DNA of 11,660 bases from Candidatus Thorarchaeota archaeon (GTDB lineage: Archaea > Asgardarchaeota > Thorarchaeia > Thorarchaeales > Thorarchaeaceae): positions 1 to 11,660 of the forward strand of contig JBHLRQ010000091.1 of NCBI GenBank assembly GCA_048882385.1, read 5' to 3'. Under the pieces are notes generated by a model. The model searched no databases. It was given only the letters and a program-made list of their open reading frames with translations, and was not told where the DNA came from. Below, one piece after another: positions 2 to 11,660 of this stretch; position 1 is the stretch's first letter, and the number at the start of each line of letters is the position of its first letter. The translations under genes and the position numbers were made by a program.

Positions 2-148
2 GAACTTTGTAACAGGGTAGGAATACTCTATCAAGGAGAACTTGTTGCCATTGGTAAACCATCAGAGTTGGAAGAAAAATACAAGGCTGCCAATCTTGAA
101 GAAGTGTTCACTGGGCTTGTCACAGGAGAGGGGGTGTACGCTGATTGA
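2..148 (+). CDS. ABC transporter ATP-binding protein, C-terminal fragment (5' truncated by window edge)
   Basis: Frame +2 translates ELCNRVGILYQGELVAIGKPSELEEKYKAANLEEVFTGLVTGEGVYAD* (TGA 146-148). The LCxRVxIxxxG and LEEVF segments are typical of ABC-2/drug-exporter ATPase C-termini. The stop overlaps the permease TTG start (TTGA). Not in the supplied ORF track. Confidence 0.85.
   Translation, partial: ELCNRVGILYQGELVAIGKPSELEEKYKAANLEEVFTGLVTGEGVYAD
125..136 (+). promoter_or_regulatory. Shine-Dalgarno site for the ABC permease
   Basis: GGAGAGGGGGTG ends 8 nt before TTG at 145. Confidence 0.6.
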
Positions 149-1383
149 AGAGCAAGAAGAAATCCCCCAATGAGAGTAAGAAGACGATTTGGCTTTTGAA
201 GAAAGAGATCAAGTCTGTTCTCCGTTCTCGTTGGCTCCTTCTTGGATTCATGATTAGCCCACTATTTGCATGGCTCTTTCAAGGAGTCTTTCTGAATTTT
301 CTGTTTGCAACAGCAATTGAACCTGAAAATGTCTACATAACTAATGATGATGGATCTGGGAGTAATGGTACATGGGGCCAGTATCTCTATGATAGTCTCT
401 ATGCTCAATATGATTATGAAAAGACCGTACCTGACGACCAAAAGTTTCTCAAATATGTAAATCTCACCACCGTAAACGCTAGCGTAGGATCAGAACTGTG
501 GGAGAACAGAACCGCACCTGTATGGATATTGATACCTACTAACTTCACTGAAGTCTTTGAAACTTACAATGTGACAACCTTGACCATCTACGTAAACTCA
601 GGAAGTTTCAGGGCTACTGCAGCGTATGAGAGAACCAAGAACTTTGCTCAGTGGCTGATGAGAGCAACTGACCTCTTTGTTCAACAAATAAGCCCGCCAG
701 CGGCTGAAGCAAGCTATGGTCACCAACTAGCAATATTTCTTGTAATGATAACCTCAGTCATGGCACCTAGTCCGTATATCAGCAAATCATTTGCAGGCGA
801 GAGAGAGCAGCACACGCTGGAGGCTCTGCTAGTTGTGCCATTAAGTCGACTCAAGATTCTAGGTGCAAAGTTGGTGGCTGGATTGCTATTGACCATGATA
901 TATTCTACATTCACTGTAGTCGGGATTCTCGCATACAACGCTCTGGTCCTAGTGAGAGGCGCGGGAAGTCTGAATAGCGAGAGCCAGATAGGATTCTATA
1001 GTGTTCAAGTCACAAGTATTCCTCTGATATTCTTCTGCCAGTTCTTGATTTTACTCTGTGCGATTGGGATTGGCGTTGTAATCTCAACAATGGCTAAAGA
1101 TCAAGCAACTTCAGAGTCGATCAACAATCTTGTACTCCTTGTACCAACGATGGTAATAGGAATCCTTGGTTTTGCTGGGAGCATCAGTCAAGTCAGTGGT
1201 CTGTTCGGACTTTTTGTGTTCCTGATACCCTTTAGTCATGCAATCATGTTCCTCAATGGAGTGCTGTCACCAGCTCCAAATGTGTTCCTGCTCTTCATAA
1301 ACGTCGTGTATATGTTGGCCTTCACAATTGTCTTTCTAATAATAGGAGCCAAGGCGTTTGAGAGAGAGGCAATCATTGCTTAG
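145..1383 (+). CDS. ABC-2 type exporter permease (NatB/YhgE-like architecture)
   Basis: 412 aa with one N-terminal TM, an extracellular domain of about 135 aa and then several TMs. The motif FAGEREQHTLEALLVVPLSRLKILGAKL matches the ABC-2 permease 'E(R/K)ExxTLExLLxxP...GK' pattern. Coupled to the upstream ATPase. Confidence 0.88.
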   Translation: MKSKKKSPNESKKTIWLLKKEIKSVLRSRWLLLGFMISPLFAWLFQGVFLNFLFATAIEPENVYITNDDGSGSNGTWGQYLYDSLYAQYDYEKTVPDDQKFLKYVNLTTVNASVGSELWENRTAPVWILIPTNFTEVFETYNVTTLTIYVNSGSFRATAAYERTKNFAQWLMRATDLFVQQISPPAAEASYGHQLAIFLVMITSVMAPSPYISKSFAGEREQHTLEALLVVPLSRLKILGAKLVAGLLLTMIYSTFTVVGILAYNALVLVRGAGSLNSESQIGFYSVQVTSIPLIFFCQFLILLCAIGIGVVISTMAKDQATSESINNLVLLVPTMVIGILGFAGSISQVSGLFGLFVFLIPFSHAIMFLNGVLSPAPNVFLLFINVVYMLAFTIVFLIIGAKAFEREAIIA

Positions 1384-2774
1384 GATATGGGCCATTTTGG
1401 ACTTATGTCAACTCCAGAACGGTCTAGGAGCTCGGTTGCATGCTCCCTTGCCTTTGCCTTGACCTTCCCTTCATCCAGAGTGAGTAATTTCCTCTCACGC
1501 ATCAGAATCTGTCCATTCACAAGTACTGTATCTACCGCATAACCAGATCCCGAGTAAACAAGGTTAGAAACAGGATTTGATGCAGGTGTAAGGCTGAGAC
1601 CTTGCAGGTCAACAAGAATGATGTCAGCCAATTTTCCAGACTCGATTGACCCAACCCGATCCTGGATACCCATGGCTGCAGCACCCCCGAGTGTGGCCAT
1701 CTCAATCGCCTGCTCAGCGGTCACAACAAGTGGGTCTTTGACGTATGATTTGTGAATGAGAGCTGCAAGTCGCATCTCACGAACCATGTCGTAAGTATTG
1801 TTGGAGGGCCCACCATCGCATCCTAGAGAAACAGGCACACCTACTTGAAGCATCTGTGGGACTTTCGCAAATCCTGAGGCAAGTTTCATGTTACTTGAGG
1901 GACAATGGGAAATGTTTGATTTACTTTCAGCAAGCACTTTCAATTCATCGTCTTCAAAATGAATCCCGTGTGCGAAAACCATGTCAGGACCCAATAGATT
2001 GTGATCCCGGGCAAATGTGGTCAAGTTAGTACCGAAATTCTCCTTCACATACCGAACATCATCAACAACCTCACCAAGATGCATAGTCATTCTCGTTTTC
2101 TTCTCCCGGGTTCTACGAGCGACGTCTTTGAAAAGATCTGGAGTAACAGCACCCAATGACCGTAGACCATACCAGACCTGGATTCTTCCGTCTGCCTTGC
2201 CATGCCACTTCTTGTACATTTCATCGGTTTCAGTCAGACAGGCTTCAGCATCCTCCACCATACCAGGATACATTATGTCAGGGCTATCTGCATAACCTGT
2301 TGAATCCATAATGATCTTTGAGAGAGCAGCTCTCATACCTGCTTGTTCAACTGCTTTCGCAATACCATCGAAACCGTATCTTGAATGAATCATGCATTCG
2401 ACAAAAGATGTTGTGCCAGTACGAATCATCTCAGCCATACAAAGTTCAGCAGAAACGCGTCCATCTTCTTTTGTGAAGTTTCCTTGAAGGACCCAGACAT
2501 ATTTTTTCAACCAGTCTACAAGTGATACATCATCAGCACAACCACGAATCAACGCTTGAGCTAGGTGAGTATGCGTATCAATAAGCCCCGGCATAACGAT
2601 CATATTCTTGGCATCAATGAGCAGGTCTGGGTTATGCCCTTTCAGTTCGTCCGTTTTCCCAACTTCTACAATTGCTTCGTTTTCAATATAGACAGAACCT
2701 CTTGAAAGAATCTCACGTTTTGCATTCAGGGTCAGAACATATCCGTTCTCTATGAGAATTGAATTAGTGGCCAA
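1380..2774 (-). CDS. Amidohydrolase-superfamily deaminase (cog0402; MtaD/GuaD/SsnA/AtzA-like), substrate unknown
   Basis: 464 aa. Contains PGLIDTHTH (HxH metal ligands), MHLGE (His ligand plus catalytic Glu), FAHGIH, HCPSSNMKL, LGCDG (Asp ligand) and GSIESGKLADI. TTG start has GGAGGAG 7 nt upstream. Confidence 0.9.
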   Translation of the reverse strand: MATNSILIENGYVLTLNAKREILSRGSVYIENEAIVEVGKTDELKGHNPDLLIDAKNMIVMPGLIDTHTHLAQALIRGCADDVSLVDWLKKYVWVLQGNFTKEDGRVSAELCMAEMIRTGTTSFVECMIHSRYGFDGIAKAVEQAGMRAALSKIIMDSTGYADSPDIMYPGMVEDAEACLTETDEMYKKWHGKADGRIQVWYGLRSLGAVTPDLFKDVARRTREKKTRMTMHLGEVVDDVRYVKENFGTNLTTFARDHNLLGPDMVFAHGIHFEDDELKVLAESKSNISHCPSSNMKLASGFAKVPQMLQVGVPVSLGCDGGPSNNTYDMVREMRLAALIHKSYVKDPLVVTAEQAIEMATLGGAAAMGIQDRVGSIESGKLADIILVDLQGLSLTPASNPVSNLVYSGSGYAVDTVLVNGQILMRERKLLTLDEGKVKAKAREHATELLDRSGVDISPKWPIS

Positions 2775-2781
2775 GAATAGA

Positions 2782-2788
2782 CTCCTCC
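2782..2788 (-). promoter_or_regulatory. Shine-Dalgarno site for the amidohydrolase
   Basis: CTCCTCC on + reads GGAGGAG on -, 7 nt before TTG at 2774. Confidence 0.7.
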
Positions 2789-2838
2789 AAGAAAGACTTG
2801 CATATGTACCGTGACATAATACTTGCGGTGGATACTAT

Positions 2839-4638
2839 TTAGGCAGGTTTAGCAAATTTGATCTTAATGGTGAGTCCTTGTTCTGGTTTGCCCTTGACCC
2901 GATCAATTACTTGAGGTGTATTTCCGTACTTTTCTGCTAATCTTCTCACAAGGTGGAGGCCAACACCACCATATCGACGGGTTGGTTCGAATAACTCCCT
3001 TTTTTTAGTGTCATCAAGTCCAGGTCCATTATCGGACACGCTTAGCCAGTAACCATCAGATGTAGATTTCCCACGTACCCTTACCATCTTTTCCGAATCA
3101 CTCTTTGGATTGTGAACAACAGCATTCTCAAGTAAATTCCATACCAGTTGACTCAGCGCTTGGTCTGCAAGTACTATCACATTCTGAGGGAATTTCCCAA
3201 TGTCAACTTTAACGCCCCTTTGTTTGAAAAGTAGCTCTGATTCGGCTCGGACAACACTGGCTAAGTCTACAGGTCCTATTGGTTCTGTTTTAGACTCCTC
3301 GGCTTTCCTTACCTTTTGTATGAGTTCTAGACAACGAAGCGCTCCATCCATGACATATCTCTTTGACCTCAGGATTTGTTCAGGTTTTGAATTCTTCTCT
3401 AGGAAATCTCCTCCAGCAAGAATGAGCTGTAATTGGTTTCCAATATCATGAAGAAGAAGATCTAGTAGAAAATAGACCTCAGCTTCTGCATTCTTTAGAT
3501 CTGACACATCTGTGAAGATAGCGAGACTACCGATATACTGACCATCAGGATCAAACAAAGGTGATGCAGAAATCATAACGGGGATAAGACTTCCAGACCA
3601 ATGCTTGAGTAGCGCTTCATAGTGATCGATCTTGCCTTCTTTTCGTTCTTCCATCTTCTCGTGAACTTTGTTCTCCGTCCATCCATGCAAAATGTCAGTA
3701 ATTGGAAGCCCTATCAATTGCTCGGGGTAATCGCAACCAATCATCTTGCAGAGGGCTTCATTAGCAAGAACCATCTTTCCATCTGCATCATCAACACCTA
3801 AGCCGGAGTCCATTGTTTCAATGAGTGATCTATAGCGACGTTCACTCTCCTGAAGTGCTCTAGCACGTAACTTCTCTTCTGTGATATCAATCAATTGAGC
3901 AACTGTTTTGATCTCTCCATCCTTGCTACGTATTGTACCTACATTCATCCGGATATCTGAAACAGCACCATCTTTCCGTACAATTTTGAATTCATATACA
4001 GAGGGAACAGATTGACCTCTCCTCCTTTTTCTATAACGATCTGCGACCATGTCGACATCATCAGGATGGACGAATTCACGAAAATCATGTCCTAGGATTT
4101 CACTTCGTCTTCGGCCTAGGATGTCACACATCTTGTCATTGACATACTCAAACTTGTAGTCCCCACCCACAACTATCATTCCAGCAAAGCTGTAGTAATC
4201 AACCATGAACTCGAGAATCTCTTTTCTTGCATCAATCTTTTCTTCAACAACTTCCCTGCGACTCAAATCCAAGAGATATACCACAAACCCAACGATCTTC
4301 CCTTGTTCGGTTATGGTGTTAGTATAGACTTGTGTAGGAACCTTGACACCATCGCCTCGAACAACTCTCAATGAGATTGATACAGAGGGGACACCACTTC
4401 TGAGAATACGAAGACCTTCCTCGACCTGGGCTAATTGCTCGGCCGCGACCAACTCAGGTACAGAAATCCCTTCGTTCAAGACCTTCTTGTCAAGTTTGAA
4501 TAATTCTATGGCAGGATGGTTTGCATAGGTCAAAATGAATTTGTCATCAAGCTCAATCACAGGTATGAGCATACTATCAGCTACCTGATGAAACGCCTTT
4601 CTTGTGGGGGACGGCTTTCGCTTGAACGACTGTTTCAT
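2839..4638 (-). CDS. Cytoplasmic PAS-domain sensor histidine kinase (3 PAS/PAC + HisKA + HATPase)
   Basis: Three PAS repeats (YANHPAIELF; YVNDKMCDILGRRRSEILG..FVHPDD; LANEALCKMIG) are followed by H-box LLHDIGNQLQ, N-box NLLENAVVHN, G1 DNGPGL, F-box LFEP and G2 GGVGL. No TM segments. ATG 4638 (MKQSFKRK) is preferred over 4692. Confidence 0.9.
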   Translation of the reverse strand: MKQSFKRKPSPTRKAFHQVADSMLIPVIELDDKFILTYANHPAIELFKLDKKVLNEGISVPELVAAEQLAQVEEGLRILRSGVPSVSISLRVVRGDGVKVPTQVYTNTITEQGKIVGFVVYLLDLSRREVVEEKIDARKEILEFMVDYYSFAGMIVVGGDYKFEYVNDKMCDILGRRRSEILGHDFREFVHPDDVDMVADRYRKRRRGQSVPSVYEFKIVRKDGAVSDIRMNVGTIRSKDGEIKTVAQLIDITEEKLRARALQESERRYRSLIETMDSGLGVDDADGKMVLANEALCKMIGCDYPEQLIGLPITDILHGWTENKVHEKMEERKEGKIDHYEALLKHWSGSLIPVMISASPLFDPDGQYIGSLAIFTDVSDLKNAEAEVYFLLDLLLHDIGNQLQLILAGGDFLEKNSKPEQILRSKRYVMDGALRCLELIQKVRKAEESKTEPIGPVDLASVVRAESELLFKQRGVKVDIGKFPQNVIVLADQALSQLVWNLLENAVVHNPKSDSEKMVRVRGKSTSDGYWLSVSDNGPGLDDTKKRELFEPTRRYGGVGLHLVRRLAEKYGNTPQVIDRVKGKPEQGLTIKIKFAKPA

Positions 4639-4751
4639 AGTCCCACTTCTGCAACTTGTTTTGATTTTCAACCATGCGCAGCAAAACAGCATCCGGGTGT
4701 GTATGAATCCAAAGTGGGCTTGTTCATATACTTTAGTAAGATGTACAAACA

Positions 4752-4770
4752 GAAAGGTAACAACTTAAAG
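4752..4770 (+). promoter_or_regulatory. Putative BRE/TATA promoter of the Fe-S/AOR operon
   Basis: Purine-rich GAAAGGTAACAA is followed by CTTAAAG (4764-4770), about 50 nt before the SD-led TTG at 4820. Confidence 0.4.
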
Positions 4771-4819
4771 GGGTAGATTCTTGAATGTGAAGACTGAATC
4801 ATAAGTGGAGACTCGACTC

Positions 4820-5308
4820 TTGAAGAGCATACTCGTGATCGATATCAACAAATGTACTGGTTGCAGAAATTGCGAACTGGCCTGTTCAACAAGGCACACA
4901 AACTCATTCAACCCGAAAAGGTCTCGGATACAGATTCTCAAGAAGGAAGACCAGAATATGATCCTACCAATGGTCTGTCTCCAGTGTGAAGTCCCCCTCT
5001 GTGAACAAGCATGTCCAAATGGTGCAATCTCATACAACGAGAAAGGCACTCTATATGTAAGCAGTAAAGATTGTATAGGCTGCATGAACTGCGTCACCGC
5101 TTGTACCTTTGGAGGAATTGAAATTGATCCAATAACTCTGAAAGCGATAAAGTGTGACCTGTGTTTGGGAGACCCGGCCTGTGTCAAGGCATGTGACTAT
5201 GGTGCAATCAGTATGATTGAAGCAAAACACACAGGATTGGATGCACGTAGAAGAGGTGTAGATCCTGTCTACCAGACACTTGGAATTGAAAGAGGAGAGG
5301 TGCAATAA
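4820..5308 (+). CDS. 4x[4Fe-4S] electron-transfer protein (DmsB/CooF/HycB-like), probable AOR small subunit
   Basis: Cys motifs CTGCRNCELAC, CLQCEVPLCEQACP, CIGCMNCVTAC and KCDLCLGDPACVKAC. TTG 4820 has GGAG (4807-4810) upstream, and GTG 4805 is an alternative start. The TAATG stop/start overlap with AOR has SD GGAGAGGTG just upstream. Confidence 0.9.
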   Translation: MKSILVIDINKCTGCRNCELACSTRHTNSFNPKRSRIQILKKEDQNMILPMVCLQCEVPLCEQACPNGAISYNEKGTLYVSSKDCIGCMNCVTACTFGGIEIDPITLKAIKCDLCLGDPACVKACDYGAISMIEAKHTGLDARRRGVDPVYQTLGIERGEVQ

Positions 5309-7236
5309 TGACATTTCCGTACAAGGGATATGCTGGGTATTATCTAGATGTTGATCTGACAAAGGGAAAGGTCCACAAGAAGGAGATGGAGAAAGAGTGG
5401 GCTAGACTCTATCTTGGTGGAAGTGGAGTTGCTGCTAGGATTCTCTGGGACAGAACAGGACAAAAAACAGACCCTCTAGGTCCCGATAATGTTCTAGTTG
5501 TTGGAACAGGACCACTCAATGGATCCATGTTCTCACCTTCGGGAAGGATGATGTTTGCAGCGAAAGGACCTTTGACTGGAGTTTGGGCGGAGTCACATGT
5601 TGGGGGATTTTTGGGTCCAGAAATCAAGTATGCGGGTTTTGACTTTGTCATTTTGAATGGGCGTTCAGAAAAACCAGTCTATTTGTATCTGAAAGATGGA
5701 CAGGCAGAGCTTCGTGATGCATCGCATCTCTGGGGCAGAGAAACAAATGTGACCACGGAGATGATTAGAGAGGAGCTCAAGAATCCAACCGCTGAAACCG
5801 CAGTAATTGGTCCAGCTGGGGAAAATGGAGTGCTCTATGGTGCAATCATTGTAGACTTCTATCGAGCAGCAGGGCGTGCGGGGCTCGGAACTGTGTTGGG
5901 CTCTAAGAATGTAAAAGCCATTGTGGCAAGTGGGTCTCTGGGCATAGAGGCTTATGATATGGAAAAATACCTTGAGGCCAATGAAGTTGAGATGCAAAGA
6001 GTCTGCGACCCAATCTGGACAGAGTCTCTTGGGTCTCTGAGAAAATACGGAACTACAGATCTAGTGGCAATCATCAATGAGATAGGTAGACTGCCAACCA
6101 AGAACCATTGGACCGGATTCTATGAGGACGCAGATGACATTGGGCCAGAATTGATTGCTGAGAAATATCGCATTGCCCAGGAAGCATGTTTCGGTTGTGA
6201 GGTTGGCTGCAAATACATAATCCGTGTAAAGGAGGGCAAGTATGCTACAGGTCCAATAGGTGGACCAGAGTATGAAACCATTATGGCATTTGGTTCAAAC
6301 TGTATGAACAACAATGTCGAGTCAGTTTTCCATCTGGGCAAAAGGTGTGACTTGCTTGGTCTGGATACTATCAGTTGTGGGAAGTCAATTAGTTTTGCTA
6401 TGGATCTATGGGAGCATGGAATCATCACAGCAAAAGACACAGATGGATTGGAGCTCACATGGGGCAACGCTGAATCACAGATTGCGCTTGTTGAGAAGAT
6501 AGCCAGACGCGAGGGATTCGGAGAGATTCTTGCAAAGGGAGTAAGAAAAGCTGCAGAGATAATTGGGGGTGATGCCTGGAAGTATGCTGTACATGTCAAA
6601 GGTCTCGAGGCATCAGGTCAAGACCCAAGAGCACATCAGAGCATTGGACTTACGTATGCGACAAATGTCAGAGGAGCTGACCACCTGAGGAGTCTCTCTA
6701 GTTTAGAAGAACTGGGATTTCCTGGAATAGTTATTGACAGGTTCGGGAAGGACAAGGCTGATGCTATTCTTGACATCATGTCACCGGAACACAAAGGAGA
6801 ACTAGTATGGGACATGGAGGATCTGTATGCACTTGTCGACTCAGCAGTCATATGCAAGTATGGAACAATGTGGCCTCCAGTCTATTACTTTGATACTTTT
6901 GTGAACGTGATACCTCCTCTCACAGGAATGAAAGAGTGGGGAGATGCAAAATTCGTCAGAAAAGCAGCTGAGAGAATCAGTCACTTAAGAAGGGCATACA
7001 ATCATAGGCTAGGTGTGACACGTAAGGAAGAAAACCTTCCACACAGACTGCTCAAGGAGCCAATGCCAACAGGTCCATCCAAAGGTGGTCTCCCTGACCT
7101 TGATATCATGCTTGACGACTATTACAAGTTCAGAGGGTGCGATAGGGAAACAGGTTATCCATTTGAGTCCAAGTTAAAAGAGCTCGAACTAGACTTTGTC
7201 ATTGAAGAACTGAAACCCAAAGGATTGACAAGATAG
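5308..7236 (+). CDS. aor: Aldehyde:ferredoxin oxidoreductase family protein (tungsten bis-pterin, [4Fe-4S])
   Basis: 642 aa. Contains YLGGSG, KGPLTG..ESHVGG, IGPAGE, AAGRAGLGTVLGSKNVKAI, CFGCEVGC (cluster ligands), GPEYET, DLLGLDTIS, VKGLE..GQDPR, RGADH, DSAVIC (fourth Cys) and YYKFRG. The family is secure but the exact substrate and clade are not. Confidence 0.92.
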   Translation: MTFPYKGYAGYYLDVDLTKGKVHKKEMEKEWARLYLGGSGVAARILWDRTGQKTDPLGPDNVLVVGTGPLNGSMFSPSGRMMFAAKGPLTGVWAESHVGGFLGPEIKYAGFDFVILNGRSEKPVYLYLKDGQAELRDASHLWGRETNVTTEMIREELKNPTAETAVIGPAGENGVLYGAIIVDFYRAAGRAGLGTVLGSKNVKAIVASGSLGIEAYDMEKYLEANEVEMQRVCDPIWTESLGSLRKYGTTDLVAIINEIGRLPTKNHWTGFYEDADDIGPELIAEKYRIAQEACFGCEVGCKYIIRVKEGKYATGPIGGPEYETIMAFGSNCMNNNVESVFHLGKRCDLLGLDTISCGKSISFAMDLWEHGIITAKDTDGLELTWGNAESQIALVEKIARREGFGEILAKGVRKAAEIIGGDAWKYAVHVKGLEASGQDPRAHQSIGLTYATNVRGADHLRSLSSLEELGFPGIVIDRFGKDKADAILDIMSPEHKGELVWDMEDLYALVDSAVICKYGTMWPPVYYFDTFVNVIPPLTGMKEWGDAKFVRKAAERISHLRRAYNHRLGVTRKEENLPHRLLKEPMPTGPSKGGLPDLDIMLDDYYKFRGCDRETGYPFESKLKELELDFVIEELKPKGLTR

Positions 7237-7300
7237 TTAAGTGAGCGAATGACGGGAGTATCTTTAAGTAAGAATCATAACTCGACCAAATATAGATGGC

Positions 7301-9142
7301 TTGCTCGCATTATCACACAGAAGGCGACATTCAGAAATGACTGAAAGGGAAGCAATGAGAAGACAGATCATTCTGTATTCGTCAGGGGCCCTGATTGGCA
7401 TAGTTTCAGGCTTCGCGGCTATCATTTTTCGATTTCTAATTTTAAATTTCAGTCTAGTGTTTCTCTTCTTGCCAGAGGTAGTAGGCATTCTGGGATGGGT
7501 GGCCGCCCCTATCATAGGCGGTTTAATTGTTGCCTTCATCGTCGTAAGGTATGCACCTGAAGCAAAAGGACATGGAGTACCGGAAGTGATTGAAGCCTAT
7601 GCCCTCCGTGAGGGAAAGATCCGCTTTCGTGTTCCTCTTCTAAAGAGTCTGGCATCAGCAATCTGTATTGGTTCAGGTGGTTCGTGCGGTCGTGAAGGTC
7701 CGATTGCACAGATTGGCGCAGGTGCAGGGTCTGCTGTCGCAACAGCTCTTAATTTCGACAAGAGAGAGAGAAGAACCCTTGTGGTATGTGGTCTCTCTTC
7801 AGGAATTGCGGCAACATTTAATGCACCTCTAGGCGGGGCCCTTTTTGGAATCGAGGTATTAGCGGGCGGAATCATTGGATTTTCAATACTTCCGGTCATT
7901 CTGGCATCTGTTGTGGCAACCGCTCTCGCTGATTTGATACTTGGGACATCTGTTTCGTTCCAAGCACCTCTCTTCGTGATGGGGCATCCCATCGAACTTC
8001 TATTCTATCTTATCCTAGGAATTGTCTTTGGAGTAACAAGTGTCATCTGGATGAGAGGATTCTATAAAATAGAGGATTTGCTTGAGAAAATACGTGTTTC
8101 AAAGTACCTCCTTCCAGCAATAGGAGGTCTATTTGTCGGAATTCTAGCTATAACAACAGTGTATGTTGAAGGTGTTTTTACGTACTCTGGAGAATTCTCA
8201 GCAAGTCGACCATATTATCCTGCAATAATGGGAGTAGGTTATGCTTTCATTGATGCGACTCTAATAGGGACTGTGGCATTGGGAGCCCTCTTCATATTCG
8301 GCTTCTTTAAACTCCTGGCAACTAGCCTCACCCTAGGCTCTGGAGGATCCGGTGGTGTATTTGCCCCAACTCTGTTCATGGGAGCTGCGTTTGGTGGTGC
8401 TTTTGGTTTATCATTTTCAGCAATTGCTCCATGGGCGGTTCCACAACCCATGGCATTTGCACTAGTTGGTATGGCTGCATTGTTTGCAGGAGCTGGACGA
8501 GCTCCAATCACATGCATTGTCATGCTCATGGAAATGACTGCCGATTATTCCTTGATACTCCCATTAATGATTGCAGTTTCAGCATCATATCTGGTGTCAT
8601 CGCTCATAGAACCTGAAAGCATCTACACACTGAAACTATCCAGACGAGGTGTGAGGCTCCAAAGAGGTACCCATGTTGAAGTACTGAAGACAATTAGAGC
8701 TGGCGACGTAATGACAAAGGACCCAACAGTATTGTATCCTACAATGACTACAACCCAAGTGCTTGAAATCATTGACAGGACACATCACACAAAATTCCCA
8801 GTCGTTGATGATTTTGGGAATGTCATAGGTATAATGATCGCTGAGGATCTATTCCAAACTCCAAAGGAAAGTGATAGAGAATTTCAAGTTATAGAACTCA
8901 TGAATCCTGATTTTCTACATCTTTCGCCAGAGTGTACTATGGATAGCGCACTCCAAGCTATGATCAAACGCGACGAAGGGCATGCAGTGATTGTAAGTCC
9001 CTCTCAACCCAACAAGATGATTGGATACATAACGAAAGCAGATGTTCTCAAAGCCTATGAAATTGCAATCATCAATCTGCAAAAAATGGGCACAGATGTA
9101 GAGGATATAGACCCTGCAGATATCATTGATGTTGCAGACTGA
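7301..9142 (+). CDS. CLC-family anion channel/transporter with C-terminal CBS pair
   Basis: Motifs GHGVPE, GGSCGREGP, FNAPLGGALFGIEV, GGSGGVFAP, EMT..Y and SIY, with many TMs, then two CBS repeats (VMTKDP..FPVVD; LMNPD..IGYITKADVL). The start is uncertain: TTG 7301 or ATG 7337. Confidence 0.93.
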   Translation: MLALSHRRRHSEMTEREAMRRQIILYSSGALIGIVSGFAAIIFRFLILNFSLVFLFLPEVVGILGWVAAPIIGGLIVAFIVVRYAPEAKGHGVPEVIEAYALREGKIRFRVPLLKSLASAICIGSGGSCGREGPIAQIGAGAGSAVATALNFDKRERRTLVVCGLSSGIAATFNAPLGGALFGIEVLAGGIIGFSILPVILASVVATALADLILGTSVSFQAPLFVMGHPIELLFYLILGIVFGVTSVIWMRGFYKIEDLLEKIRVSKYLLPAIGGLFVGILAITTVYVEGVFTYSGEFSASRPYYPAIMGVGYAFIDATLIGTVALGALFIFGFFKLLATSLTLGSGGSGGVFAPTLFMGAAFGGAFGLSFSAIAPWAVPQPMAFALVGMAALFAGAGRAPITCIVMLMEMTADYSLILPLMIAVSASYLVSSLIEPESIYTLKLSRRGVRLQRGTHVEVLKTIRAGDVMTKDPTVLYPTMTTTQVLEIIDRTHHTKFPVVDDFGNVIGIMIAEDLFQTPKESDREFQVIELMNPDFLHLSPECTMDSALQAMIKRDEGHAVIVSPSQPNKMIGYITKADVLKAYEIAIINLQKMGTDVEDIDPADIIDVAD

Positions 9143-9160
9143 TGACAACGCACGAATAGT

Positions 9161-9174
9161 CGAACAGTTTATGT
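9161..9174 (+). promoter_or_regulatory. Putative BRE/TATA for a leaderless transcript of the PreA-like gene
   Basis: CGAACAG-TTTATGT, with the TATA centre about 26 nt upstream of ATG 9197. No convincing SD precedes that ATG. Confidence 0.5.
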
Positions 9175-9196
9175 TAGTGATATCAAAAGGCATAGT

Positions 9197-10291
9197 ATGA
9201 CTGACATTAAGACTGAGTTTGCAGGACTTGAACTCAAAAATCCGGTCATGACTGCAGCAGGTCCAACTTCCAGAGATGGTATGACTCTGCTCAATGCCGC
9301 TGCTGGTGGTGTAGGTGGTCTTGTGGCGAAGACTGTCAGTATCAAACCAGCAGATGTCCCTCGCCCAAATATGGCAGCACTCGAAGAGGGAAGAGTGGGT
9401 TCACGACGAGGTATTCTGAATGCGGAGCTCTGGAGCGAGATGCCAGTTGAGCAGTGGCTCGAGAAGGAGTATGCAATTGCCCTCAGTTCAGGTTTACCAT
9501 TGATTGCCAGTGTTGGATATACCCCGGAAGAGGTGTCTCTACTTGGACCGAAACTAGAGAAAGCGGGAGTGCATGCGATTGAGTTCAGCACTCATTATGT
9601 TGGAGGACACTCAGAAATAGCAAAAGCACTGAAGGAGGTCGTTGACATCCCCATCTTTGCAAAAATAAGTCCGAAAGTCGATGTTGCTGAGGTTGCTAAA
9701 TCACTTGAACCACATGTGGATGGAATTGTGGGCATCAACACTTATGGACCATGTCTTAGAATCAACATCGAAACGGGAAAGCCATCCCTTGGGAGCAGCG
9801 ACGGATTTGGGTGGATGAGTGGATCTGCATTAAAACCGATTGCGATAAGGTGCATTGCAGATATCGCTCGAGCAGTCGACATTCCAGTGATTGGTGTGGG
9901 AGGAGTAACCTCAGGAGAAGATGTAATTGAGTTCACAATGGTAGGAGCTTCTGCAGTTGAAGTCTGTACAGCAGCCATTCTCGAAGGGGACATGGTTTAT
10001 GGCAAGATAGCAAAAGAAACCAAGGACTGGCTAGAAACACATGGCTATGACTCTCTGGAGGATATCAGGGGGAAAGCTCTTCCGTATCTAGACGGTAGTG
10101 CAACACTCACGCCACCTCCGAAGGTGGACATGGAGAAATGTACACTGTGTGGCCTCTGTCCAAAATCATGTGTGTATGGTGCAATCACTGTAGACAAGAA
10201 GCAGAATCTCTTCGAAATAGACAAGAAACGCTGTGAAGCATGCGGAATGTGTATCTCGGTATGTCCGTATCATGCGTTGACCCCTGATTAG
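9197..10291 (+). CDS. Dihydropyrimidine dehydrogenase PreA-like / class 1 DHODH-fold FMN oxidoreductase with C-terminal 2x[4Fe-4S]; non-canonical active site
   Basis: Motifs LKNPVMTAAGP, VAKT, LNAELWSE, AKISP, INT, MSGSALKP, IGVGGV and GASAVEVCTA, plus C-terminal CTLCGLCPKSC and CEACGMCISVCP. The canonical ELNxSCP loop is replaced by EFSTHY. Confidence 0.85.
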   Translation: MTDIKTEFAGLELKNPVMTAAGPTSRDGMTLLNAAAGGVGGLVAKTVSIKPADVPRPNMAALEEGRVGSRRGILNAELWSEMPVEQWLEKEYAIALSSGLPLIASVGYTPEEVSLLGPKLEKAGVHAIEFSTHYVGGHSEIAKALKEVVDIPIFAKISPKVDVAEVAKSLEPHVDGIVGINTYGPCLRINIETGKPSLGSSDGFGWMSGSALKPIAIRCIADIARAVDIPVIGVGGVTSGEDVIEFTMVGASAVEVCTAAILEGDMVYGKIAKETKDWLETHGYDSLEDIRGKALPYLDGSATLTPPPKVDMEKCTLCGLCPKSCVYGAITVDKKQNLFEIDKKRCEACGMCISVCPYHALTPD

Positions 10292-11472
10292 ACCCACAAC
10301 ATTGTGTCAAGGTTCCTCGTGAGTAGCTTAGCTTTGCCTTTGGTTACGGCATAGTCATCCTCTATTCTGACACCGCCGATTCTCTCAAAGTAGACCCCAG
10401 GTTCAATAGCCACAACATGACCTTCAGCAAAGTTGGCTTCACGGTTGTACATACTTGGTTGTTCATGAACCTCCAGTCCAATGCCATGTCCCAGACCATG
10501 GGTCATTCCATCCTTTGCATCGGGATTGAGTCTTCGTGAGTCAAAACCCAACTGTTGTAGTTTGTTGAAACATGCGAGGTTCACATCATCTATTTTGGAA
10601 CCATCAGTCAATGCATCCACTGCAGCATCAGCAGCTGCTTGCGTGGCTTCAAACATCTCTTTCACTCTCTTGGATGGAGTTCCCTTGACGATAGTCCTAG
10701 TTACATCTGCAACATAGCGTTCAATCTTGAGTCTAGGAAAAACATCAAGGATGATTGGCACTTCAGCCTTGAGCTTATCGCCTGAATTTCCAAGATAATG
10801 CCAGTCAAACGCCTTCTTCCCGACAGCAAGTATTGTGTCCTCTGAAGTTTCTGCATATCGATCAACAAGAAAATGTTCGAGTGCAATTTTTATCTGACCC
10901 ACGGTAAGTGGTTTCCCATTGTGAGTCAGTGTCTTATTTGGACCTATATCAGTGTCTTTGACCAAATCAATGATTTCTTTGATTGCTCCAACAGTAGCAT
11001 CTCCAGCTTTCCTAATCATCTTGATTTCACTAGCAGATTTTGTTGCTCTTGCATCTGGCAGTAGATCACGTACAACTTTGATATCATAGCCCAGTTTTTG
11101 AAGAATGACAAGTATGCTGGCAGGAATCTCATCGGGAACACCGAGCGTCTTGCCCGCGAACTCATCACGTAGCATGGGAGCAATGAATGCATCTTCATTA
11201 TCCGAAACCACTCTGTTCTCTTTGAGAAGTTGAACCTTGTATTCAGTCACATCATAGACTCTTTTGATAAAACTCTCATTCTTCACACGATCCAATTGAT
11301 TGAAAGAAGCTCCAATGACGCCTTCCTCACCTTTATTCTTGAGAAAGAGAATATGGTCACTAGTTCGGAAACCTGTGAGCCACAGAAGATTTGGAGAATT
11401 AAATGGACTGTCATATGTAAAGATCCCATCAATCTCATACTTTTCCATGAGAGAGTCAATATCCTTGAGCAT
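10288..11472 (-). CDS. M24B family Xaa-Pro peptidase (prolidase/aminopeptidase P-like)
   Basis: 394 aa. Metal-ligand motifs ILDVFP, YVADVTRT, HGLGHGIGLEVHEQP, IEPGVY and GGVRIEDD, with an N-terminal creatinase/prolidase-like domain. Confidence 0.92.
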   Translation of the reverse strand: MLKDIDSLMEKYEIDGIFTYDSPFNSPNLLWLTGFRTSDHILFLKNKGEEGVIGASFNQLDRVKNESFIKRVYDVTEYKVQLLKENRVVSDNEDAFIAPMLRDEFAGKTLGVPDEIPASILVILQKLGYDIKVVRDLLPDARATKSASEIKMIRKAGDATVGAIKEIIDLVKDTDIGPNKTLTHNGKPLTVGQIKIALEHFLVDRYAETSEDTILAVGKKAFDWHYLGNSGDKLKAEVPIILDVFPRLKIERYVADVTRTIVKGTPSKRVKEMFEATQAAADAAVDALTDGSKIDDVNLACFNKLQQLGFDSRRLNPDAKDGMTHGLGHGIGLEVHEQPSMYNREANFAEGHVVAIEPGVYFERIGGVRIEDDYAVTKGKAKLLTRNLDTMLWV

Positions 11473-11522: not shown

Positions 11523-11660
11523 TCATGTTGGAAGATATGCTTTCATTCGAGATTCTACCATCACTCGATCAGGCATTCCATACGGTCCTACAGTTTCTGC
11601 ATTGAATGATGAGCATGTTGCAGCGAACAGACCAGCTCTAGAAACATCCGCTGACCTCAT
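11523..11660 (-). CDS. Probable PfkB/ribokinase-family kinase, C-terminal fragment (truncated by window edge)
   Basis: The minus frame is open from 11660: MRSADVSRAGLFAATCSSFNAETVGPYGMPDRVMVESRMKAYLPT* (TGA at 11525-11523). It resembles the PfkB C-terminal 'A..FA.A..S...E..G....P' helix-loop. The GAGD motif lies outside the window. Not in the supplied ORF track. Confidence 0.6.
   Translation of the reverse strand: MRSADVSRAGLFAATCSSFNAETVGPYGMPDRVMVESRMKAYLPT

Follow-up and report, generated by a model that had tools for sequence, protein, structure and literature searches.

A conserved Asgard gene island that joins a tungsten-type aldehyde oxidoreductase to a dihydroorotate dehydrogenase-like flavoenzyme, and its possible part in reductive purine breakdown

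To our knowledge, the reductive breakdown of purines was not elucidated until 2025, and then in bacteria only (gut bacteria, under oxygen-free conditions), and in every described version that we know of, a molybdenum hydroxylase, often selenium-dependent, feeds the ring reductase. The reductive uric-acid cluster of Escherichia coli contains xdhD-ygfM, ygfK, ssnA, hyuA, ygeW, yqeA, ygeY, and ygeX, and Clostridioides difficile possesses a variant with UacX and UacY (PMC12507026; bioRxiv 10.1101/2025.04.24.650524). Here, we analyze an entire contig of 11,660 bases (C91; GenBank JBHLRQ010000091.1), referred to below as the window, from a Candidatus Thorarchaeota genome (G000; 3.7 Mb, 95% complete). 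It carries a gene for a flavoenzyme resembling dihydroorotate dehydrogenase (DHOD), which we call DHODL, downstream of a gene pair encoding a polyferredoxin (FeS) and a tungsten-type aldehyde oxidoreductase (AOR). This association is conserved in several archaeal lineages, and we tentatively read it as part of an archaeal variant of the purine pathway.

In the bacterial pathway, XdhD (the DOPDH of Liu et al.) converts uric acid to 2,8-dioxopurine by reduction, according to the available portions of the preprint, which also assign two molybdenum enzymes, xanthine dehydrogenase (XDH) and DOPDH, to Clostridium sporogenes (bioRxiv 10.1101/2025.04.24.650524). The accessible parts of two further reports state that YgfK, and UacX in C. 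difficile, reduce 2,8-dioxopurine only when coupled to SsnA, and that UacX is a PydA homolog (PF01180) without a flavin adenine dinucleotide (FAD) domain, reduced ferredoxin being its proposed donor (bioRxiv 10.1101/2025.05.19.654654; PMC12507026). The genes for YgfK/UacX and SsnA are usually adjacent (bioRxiv 10.1101/2025.05.19.654654).

For the AOR side of the island, the closest described systems are the tungsten aldehyde oxidoreductases AorABC of Aromatoleum aromaticum (8c0z) and WorABCSL of Acetomicrobium mobile (9mqx), each of which combines a polyferredoxin nanowire with an electron-output cap. As far as the accessible text of their reports goes, the wire carries electrons from the tungsten sites to the capping module AorC in the former and is capped by WorABC in the latter (9MQX). 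With these systems the island shares the order FeS, AOR, and third redox subunit, and in what we call Hermod-type loci a ThiS/MoaD-like gene then follows; unlike them, its third gene encodes a flavin mononucleotide (FMN) TIM-barrel enzyme, a putative ring reductase, and not an AorC-type FAD/NAD module or a BfuABC-type core. BamB, of class II benzoyl-CoA reductase, likewise offers an AOR-family enzyme with a polyferredoxin partner and reductive ring chemistry. BamB has a distinct tungsten ligation.

The FeS-AOR-DHODL group recurs outside the window; a preliminary description of this DNA had named a lack of such recurrence as a refutation of its proposal, and this check does not refute it. Public genomes were scanned with a DHODL alignment, and the 80 loci obtained were sampled with the motif [ILV][LIY]N[ACH]E[LK]W[SD][ED][LKM]; in each locus, open reading frames (ORFs) were called and clustered with BLASTP, cluster representatives were annotated, and the neighborhood was taken as everything within 10 kb of DHODL. 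An AOR gene lies in that neighborhood in 37/42 Thor-type loci (the five misses all have less than 2.4 kb of upstream DNA), in 14/14 Hermod-type loci, and in the single loci from Bathyarchaeia and Kor4 (1/1 each). It was found in 0/10 loci from Hadarchaeota, 0/11 from bacteria, and 0/1 from Asgardarchaeum (L117). At the level of the genus, AOR stands ahead of DHODL in 14/15 loci, and the single miss has 1.1 kb of upstream DNA.

The linkage spans three gene orders (FeS>AOR>DHODL, DHODL>FeS>AOR>, and AOR<FeS<ThiS>DHODL>), and the DHODLs of the AOR-linked lineages are only 50-55% identical. In the nine Hermod-type loci for which spacing was measured, AOR runs 1-4 nt into DHODL, and in several Thor loci 6-63 nt lie between them. 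In a quick tree search of 49 AOR rows, with Shimodaira-Hasegawa-like approximate likelihood ratio test (SH-aLRT) support only, one group (22 rows, SH-aLRT 89) unites the AORs that adjoin DHODL in Thor-type, Hermod-type, and Bathyarchaeia loci, and the second AOR of the island makes up a separate one (17 rows, SH-aLRT 100). Six of the eight other AOR paralogs of G000 in this tree fall outside both groups, the paralog on contig C81 being the second island AOR; the one on contig C38 pairs with the Kor4 AOR, beside the DHODL-adjacent group. An equally quick search of 43 DHODL rows, with the same kind of support, gives a clade (30 rows, SH-aLRT 99), internally unresolved, that contains both the XDH-linked bacterial proteins and the AOR-linked ones of Thor-type, Hermod-type, Bathyarchaeia, and Kor4 loci; Hadarchaeota are just outside.

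The window holds eight genes and one stub, as established by the ORF listing and by Pfam and NCBIfam scans, and every gene named in the preliminary description was recovered in its place. The features are as follows.

145..1383, plus strand: ABC-2 family transporter permease (ABC2_membrane_3, 80.9 bits)
1380..2774, minus strand: A1, cog0402 amidohydrolase/deaminase of the MtaD/DadD/8-oxoguanine-deaminase group (Amidohydro_1, 243 bits)
2839..4692, minus strand: PAS-domain sensor histidine kinase, HK (three PAS stretches and HATPase_c)
4693..4804, no strand: divergent spacer of 112 bp between the HK-A1 and FeS-AOR-CLC-DHODL units (from ORF coordinates)
4805..5308, plus strand: FeS, 16-Cys polyferredoxin of the AorA/WorS type, 4x[4Fe-4S] (best solved relative AorA)
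5308..7236, plus strand: AOR, tungsten-type oxidoreductase, equivalent of WorL/AorB (AFOR_N, 244 bits; AFOR_C, 399 bits)
7301..9142, plus strand: CLC anion channel/transporter with two CBS domains (Voltage_CLC, 322 bits, and CBS)
9197..10291, plus strand: DHODL, FMN TIM-barrel with C-terminal 2x[4Fe-4S] (DHO_dh, PF01180, 117 bits, and Fer4)
10288..11472, minus strand: M24 metallopeptidase (Peptidase_M24, 138 bits)
11532..11660, minus strand: stub of a PfkB-family kinase, C-terminal 43 residues (tblastn, 77% identity over 43 residues)

These genes form two divergent units, HK-A1 on the minus strand and FeS-AOR-CLC-DHODL on the plus strand, and the spacer between them is presumed, from its position, to be a putative promoter region shared by both. 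Within the plus-strand unit, the FeS stop and AOR start overlap by 1 nt, and gaps of 64 and 54 nt separate AOR from CLC and CLC from DHODL; M24 is convergent with DHODL, with an overlap of 4 nt. The ABC-2 permease forms the left flank, convergent with A1; in 11 Thor-type loci, this permease and an ABC ATPase accompany A1. It is probably outside the pathway.

The PfkB gene runs past the end of the contig onto contig C81, where tblastn finds the remainder (C81:3-836). After this remainder, C81 (L130:1-5007) has genes for a ThiS/MoaD-like protein, a HyuA-like amidohydrolase, and another polyferredoxin-AOR pair (FeS2-AOR2; Pfam). Of this conserved Asgard island, the window makes up the left two-thirds. 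The remark, made earlier, that no ring-opening hydantoinase is present is therefore true of the window, because the contig ends there, and does not hold for the continuing contig with its HyuA-like gene. The second AOR is about 40% identical to the first and has its own clade. In other Thor genomes, genes for MvhD-like and [NiFe]-hydrogenase subunits come after the second FeS-AOR pair. The gene orders of the archaeal loci are given below, with > and < for direction.

Thor-type, 42 loci: [ABC genes] A1< HK< / FeS> AOR> (CLC or DUF362-like) DHODL> / M24< PfkB< / ThiS> HyuA-like> FeS2> AOR2>
Hermod-type, 14 loci: SIS> TatD< carbamoyltransferase> carbamoyltransferase< A1< ThiS> SsnA-like< FeS> AOR> DHODL> ThiS>
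Bathyarchaeia, 1 locus: AOR< FeS< ThiS> DHODL>
Kor4, 1 locus: DHODL> FeS> AOR> HyuA-like>
Hadarchaeota, 10 loci, without AOR: HyuA-like< SsnA-like> DHODL>

DHODL has 364 residues and consists of the DHO_dh barrel and the C-terminal Fer4 pair, with no further domain. It shares its fold and FMN-binding framework with dihydropyrimidine dehydrogenase (DPD; PreA/clostridial PydA) and class 1 DHOD (1ep1, 5ksw, 1gt8); the barrel matches DHODB PyrD at 94-102 bits and pig DPD at 90 bits, and a likeness to PreA lies in the C-terminal 2x[4Fe-4S] domain (NF006183, 173 bits against a cut-off of 335). Unlike these enzymes, DHODL lacks the NxSCPN loop with the catalytic Cys: an S-T-H-Y loop, 8-12 residues shorter, stands there, so that IEFSTHYVGGH aligns with IELNISCPNVKHGGQAFG of DHODB (the L. 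lactis-type PyrD). The substrate-binding region N-x-G-L-x-N of the known enzymes reads LNAELWS. The rebuilt active site reported in the preliminary description is thus confirmed, and a PydA-like paralog on contig C28 of the same genome retains ELNVSCPHG.

DHODL was found in 24/24 genus mates at 73-89% identity, and its eight Cys are invariant across 25 orthologs. The motifs LNAELWS, E-x-S-x-H-Y, and GW[LM]SG recur in 81 family rows of an 85-row alignment, bacterial members included, with five Hadarchaeota rows deviating at the last two residues of E-x-S-x-H-Y; the bacterial relatives are 42-48% identical and situated in XDH/SsnA-type clusters. Judged by its sequence, DHODL is neither a DHOD nor a DPD. 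We considered DHODL as the pyrimidine DPD or PyrD of this organism and rejected both, since G000 possesses separate canonical PydA-like and PyrD-like genes and the distinct canonical pyrimidine cluster sits on C28. That cluster (L131:5802-12344) encodes an aldehyde dehydrogenase, a PydA-like DPD with an Fe-S domain and intact Cys loop, a class-III aminotransferase, a CN-hydrolase, and a dihydropyrimidinase; it looks like a complete reductive pyrimidine cluster, and its dihydropyrimidinase is 38% identical to E. coli HyuA.

Among solved structures, the AOR is closest to WorL (9mqx_D, 409 bits), the AOR of P. furiosus (1aor, 397 bits), and AorB (8c0z_A, 370 bits). In alignment with 1aor, it matches at the PEYE motif, the "GADH" His, and all four Cys of the cluster (C-x2-C-x3-C and a later Cys), and the residues at Glu313, Tyr312, and His448 of 1aor are retained; Glu313 and His448 are the numbers that we take to belong to its active site. 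The protein therefore has all the marks of the AOR family, that is, AFOR_N and AFOR_C, four [4Fe-4S] Cys, and the Glu and His of the aldehyde site. Tungsten is the presumed metal of its bis-pyranopterin cofactor. BamB (4z3w) matches distantly, at only 225 bits over residues 9-428, and unlike BamB the AOR of the window keeps an aldehyde-type active site.

The polyferredoxin gene lies directly upstream of AOR, and among solved structures it is nearest to AorA (8c0z_C, 118 bits, E 4e-33) and then to WorS (9mqx_E, 93 bits); all 16 of its Cys are invariant in 25 orthologs, as in the WorS/AorA type. By these features, the module looks like an ordinary aldehyde-oxidizing WorSL. Neither the window nor its conserved neighbors contain a third module of the AorC FAD/NAD or BfuABC core type, and DHODL occupies that position. 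No PreT/GltD-type gene is in the window either, in agreement with the earlier observation that the flavoenzyme has no NAD(P)H-input subunit.

Two other AOR paralogs of G000 have flavoenzyme neighbors. On contig C3 (L148:1336-6083), the order is FeS, AOR, luciferase-like oxidoreductase, and MFS transporter, so that a flavoenzyme follows AOR here too; the luciferase family has been proposed as an alternative dioxopurine reductase in Chloroflexota (bioRxiv 10.1101/2025.05.19.654654). On contig C5 (L147:3843-8043), an NMO-type FMN enzyme, an Fe-ADH, and an AOR stand together. In an Asgardarchaeum genome (G029; L048:7934-13658), the gene for a Bmp/PnrA-type nucleoside-binding protein is followed by an SsnA-like and a DHOD-like gene and by an AOR from a different clade; the DHOD-like gene has no Fe-S domain and a different loop, IELVSY. 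This is a second, apparently independent linkage of AOR, DHOD-like, and SsnA-like genes, in a genome with four XDH-type genes.

The interpretation given in the preliminary description is supported in part, and the link to anaerobic purine catabolism that it proposed draws support from the company that DHODL keeps elsewhere. In an XDH-containing Asgard genome (G028), the order is SsnA-like (347 bits), DHODL, pyridoxal phosphate (PLP) enzyme, XDH FAD/FeS, XDH Mo (xdhB, 803 bits), XdhC, and M20. The 11 bacterial loci have XDH Mo in 4, an SsnA-like gene in 6, M20 in 5, a PLP enzyme in 4, and a carbamoyltransferase in 2, and by analogy the bacterial DHODL relatives hold the place of UacX in the 2025 pathway (PMC12507026). 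An SsnA-like gene lies directly upstream of DHODL in 10/10 Hadarchaeota loci and beside it in 11/14 Hermod-type loci (382 bits), where two carbamoyltransferases and A1 complete the cluster.

The Hermod-type carbamoyltransferases (e.g., in L104:1-12300) are two paralogs of the OTCase fold with 143-167 bits to YgeW models, and a TatD-like hydrolase accompanies them. Phosphorolysis of both ureido groups could here yield two carbamoyl phosphates, that is, two ATP per purine. In four Hadarchaeota loci (L097, L102, L103, and L111), the SsnA-like-DHODL pair is found with a third amidohydrolase and subunits of an ADP-forming acyl-CoA synthetase; these are followed by cofactor genes (XdhC-, MobA-, and MoeA-like) and one for a eukaryote-type topoisomerase IB (Topoisom_I_N, Topoisom_I, Topo_C_assoc).

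Set beside the bacterial uric-acid clusters, the island has in common with them a DHO_dh-family reductase with Fe-S clusters and without an FAD domain (the UacX type), and SsnA-like, HyuA-like, and YgeW-like genes and a carbamate kinase are present in G000 or in the continuation of the island. The SsnA-like gene is on contig C79 (32% identity to E. coli SsnA, E 9e-61), the HyuA-like amidohydrolase on C81 (29% identity to E. coli HyuA, E 7e-61), C160 and C42 each encode a YgeW-like carbamoyltransferase (30-31% identity), and C14 encodes a YqeA-like carbamate kinase (49% identity). Unlike the bacterial clusters, the island adds a DadD-like deaminase, M24, PfkB, CLC, and a PAS kinase, and an FeS-AOR pair adjoins the reductase. 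The host is an archaeon, and XdhD/XDH, YgfM, YqeB, and YqeC were not found in the island or in G000.

A1 recurs in the 10-kb neighborhood of DHODL, in 25/42 Thor-type loci and 11/14 Hermod-type ones, which bears out the earlier placement of the deaminase with the group. Its description as a nucleobase-type deaminase has to be revised. The best NCBIfam model is 5'-deoxyadenosine deaminase DadD (NF005557), at 412 bits below the equivalog cut-off of 522; the match to SsnA (IPR017700/NF005540) is weaker, at 231 bits against a cut-off of 444, with 24% identity to E. coli SsnA. Among solved structures, the methylthioadenosine/S-adenosylhomocysteine (MTA/SAH) deaminase 4f0r is nearest (248 bits); guanine deaminase is less close (197 bits). 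On these scores, A1 is assignable to the wider cog0402 deaminase group only, nearest the nucleoside-type deaminases. An identification of A1 as SsnA is ruled out by the score below the cut-off, by DadD as best family, and by the 24% identity.

With a probability of roughly 0.45, we favor the reading that the island encodes an archaeal version of the reductive uric-acid route through 2,8-dioxopurine, in which a WorSL-type aldehyde-oxidizing module is wired to a UacX-type ring reductase. It starts from what is observed in the genomes, namely gene content, conserved linkage, active-site motifs, and the lack of XDH in those searched. In this scheme, A1, as a DadD/MtaD-like enzyme, would deaminate an aminopurine base or nucleoside to the oxo form, and DHODL, a Cys-less FMN/2x[4Fe-4S] enzyme without an NAD(P)H domain, would reduce, that is, dearomatize, the dioxopurine ring. 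The SsnA-like and HyuA-like hydrolases would then open the rings, and the carbamoyltransferase-like enzymes and carbamate kinase, encoded elsewhere in G000, could recover ATP.

The FeS-AOR pair would act as a WorSL/AorAB-type module whose polyferredoxin wires the tungsten site to the ferredoxin domain of DHODL, the latter taking the place of AorC or WorABC as the capping module. Aldehyde oxidation would provide electrons of very low potential for the thermodynamically hard reduction of the ring. Unlike in AorABC and WorABCSL, the proposed electron sink would be a heterocycle and not NAD or ferredoxin, in a putative complex. We infer every substrate in this scheme, the physical complex, and the direction of electron flow. 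The supply of electrons by the AOR had been one of two roles suggested earlier, and it fits the canonical active site and the AorA/WorS-type wire protein; we favor it over the other, substitution for XDH, and keep both in play.

Several points weigh against this reading. The scheme is predicted from the genes. DHODL is likened to C. difficile UacX by domain make-up and gene context, as a proposal by analogy. With E. coli YgfK, BLASTP gives short local matches only (best E 0.001 over 36 residues), and hhalign of the DHODL profile with the N-terminal 460 residues of YgfK is not significant (probability 1.5%, E 0.034); the colinear pairs in that alignment (NAELWS/NTE-WS, SVGY/SVGY, FSTHY/LSTMH, and GWMSG/MYMSG, DHODL/YgfK) are suggestive only. 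The SsnA-like gene of G000 is unlinked to the island, and the genome has no clear YgeX (a 98-residue match only) or YgeY (best 26% identity, E 1e-11). Because its nearest relatives are nucleoside deaminases that salvage by-products of S-adenosylmethionine, A1 may belong to another process. Because G000 possesses 10 AOR paralogs, AORs are common neighbors there.

The source of 2,8-dioxopurine is a further difficulty: no XDH-type enzyme was found in G000, where E. coli XdhA, XdhD, YgfM, YqeB, and YqeC have no tblastn match at E 1e-6, which favors the main alternative, in which the AOR makes this compound and which accounts best for its origin. The AOR itself would then replace the missing molybdenum hydroxylase, either taking the 6-oxo group off uric acid, like XdhD/DOPDH, or hydroxylating hypoxanthine or xanthine, like XDH, with electrons passing to or from DHODL through the polyferredoxin; the second FeS-AOR pair could cover the second molybdenum-enzyme step. 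In its favor, AORs that reduce acids to aldehydes take an oxygen atom from carbon, as does the 6-dehydroxylation of urate. XDH is also found near DHODL in the bacterial and G028 clusters, where AOR stands in the archaeal loci, and the two AOR clades kept in the Thor island match the XDH and DOPDH of C. sporogenes, as given in the available part of that preprint (bioRxiv 10.1101/2025.04.24.650524). The distribution of AOR and XDH is complementary, and the earlier suggestion that AOR fills the XDH role fits it: a full-length XDH Mo subunit (PF02738) occurs in 0/36 genomes with an AOR-linked DHODL (25 of the window's genus, i.e., G000 and 24 others, 5 other Thor-type, 4 Hermod-type, Kor4, and Bathyarchaeia) and in 6/7 archaeal genomes with a non-AOR-linked DHODL of the STHY type, a comparison of about four AOR-linked with three unlinked lineages whose genomes are related and often incomplete. 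The former group has only a PF02738 fragment of 48 positions, in one of the five other Thor-type genomes; the counts in the latter are 2 in G028, 4 in G029, and, among Hadarchaeota, 4 in G041, 4 in G042, 4 in G054, 2 in G055, and 0 in G053. Against this stands the background, because 38/41 sampled relatives in the phylum are without XDH regardless, which speaks against a specific displacement; in addition, the canonical residues of the aldehyde site are kept, and true aldehyde oxidoreductases are far closer (370-409 bits) than the non-aldehyde enzyme BamB (225). We regard it as possible but doubtful that the AOR clade linked with DHODL acts as a purine (de)hydroxylase with tungsten, replacing the selenium/molybdenum XdhD/DOPDH in Asgard and some other archaea, with the second AOR replacing XDH. 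A 2.5-kb contig of G000 (C255; L132:952-2481) carries an orphan gene in which the FAD-binding and [2Fe-2S] subunits of the molybdenum-hydroxylase family are fused, with no Mo-binding subunit found in the genome; a neighboring ORF of 278 residues has no Pfam match.

One might also suppose that the substrate is another N-heterocycle (a pterin, a modified base, a pyrimidine analog, or a nicotinate-like ring) or that the island serves salvage of nucleosides of the 5'-deoxyadenosine/MTA type, in which the sugar would end as an aldehyde for the AOR and the likeness to the uric-acid pathway would extend to enzyme families only. The affinity of A1 to 5'-deoxyadenosine and MTA/SAH deaminases points this way, as do the lack of a clear YgeX or YgeY, the position of the SsnA-like gene outside the island, and two genes that have no counterpart in the bacterial pathway, PfkB (30/42) and M24 (31/42), each kept in Thor-type loci and in no other group. 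These two had been said to flank the group; both are indeed present in the window, PfkB as the 43-residue stub, and M24 matches the archaeal PepQ model at 95 bits against a cut-off of 630. We consider this explanation unlikely, as most of the family carries the DHODL motifs, whether in AOR-linked archaea or in bacteria and G028, with their clusters of XDH, SsnA-like, M20, PLP, and carbamoyltransferase genes, which argues for one substrate class; Hermod-type clusters keep an SsnA-like gene and two carbamoyltransferases, and pyrimidines have their canonical cluster on C28. It is very improbable that the genes are neighbors without shared function, AORs being merely abundant (10 paralogs in G000) and the order kept by descent. 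Kinship by itself would be expected to conserve gene order within one genus; the linkage, however, persists over three orders and between DHODLs 50-55% identical, with overlaps or gaps of 0-63 nt in most measured loci, one dedicated AOR clade accompanies DHODL, and variable inserts (CLC or a DUF362-like gene) between AOR and DHODL leave the unit unbroken.

The sensor kinase and the CLC protein, counted as parts of the module in the preliminary description, are not core because both are Thor-specific add-ons and the CLC copy number varies. HK is within 10 kb of DHODL in 30/42 Thor-type, 0/14 Hermod-type, and 0/10 Hadarchaeota loci, and a gene of its cluster occurs in 1/11 bacterial loci; CLC is there in 13/42 Thor-type loci but absent from the loci of every other group, with 0, 1, or 2 tandem copies between AOR and DHODL in genus mates.

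The altered filter of the CLC protein, described earlier, is real: it reads GHGVP in place of the GSGIP of E. coli ClcA, that is, His for Ser, in 18/18 island copies (the window, L049-L061, L077, L085, and L116). GREGP (with the outer Glu), GGVFAP, and the Tyr are retained. At the inner proton-Glu position, the window has Val and the island copies have Val or Ile, so that both the GSGIP Ser and the inner proton-transfer Glu of a ClcA-type Cl-/H+ exchanger are missing. We take Ser107, Glu148, Glu203, and Tyr445 of ClcA to be the filter, GREGP, inner Glu, and Tyr positions, respectively.

A full-text search, with some 1.7 million PubMed Central (PMC) articles and subscription-only papers outside its coverage, found no paper that links AOR-family enzymes to the pathway or describes the pathway in archaea. 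In the available portion of the published pathway paper, "archaea" and "tungsten" have 0 occurrences (PMC12507026). Asgard genomes and transcriptomes contain many highly expressed, unclassified AORs, to which the accessible text of the report assigns no role (PMC11291895).

If the favored reading is true, the island extends the reductive purine pathway to Asgard, Bathyarchaeia, and Korarchaeia-type archaea, in a version without an XDH-family enzyme, in which gene linkage binds the ring reductase to a tungsten AOR with its polyferredoxin wire. The role of the AOR would be new in both readings: a third kind of nanowire-plugged module, with aldehyde-driven dearomatization, or new N-heterocycle chemistry. 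Were the AOR a purine (de)hydroxylase, it would be the first AOR-family enzyme to act on an N-heterocycle, in one FeS-wired complex with the ring reductase. In either case, the island would also give a testable role to two of the many unassigned AOR paralogs that, in the accessible text of the report, dominate Asgard genomes and transcriptomes (PMC11291895).

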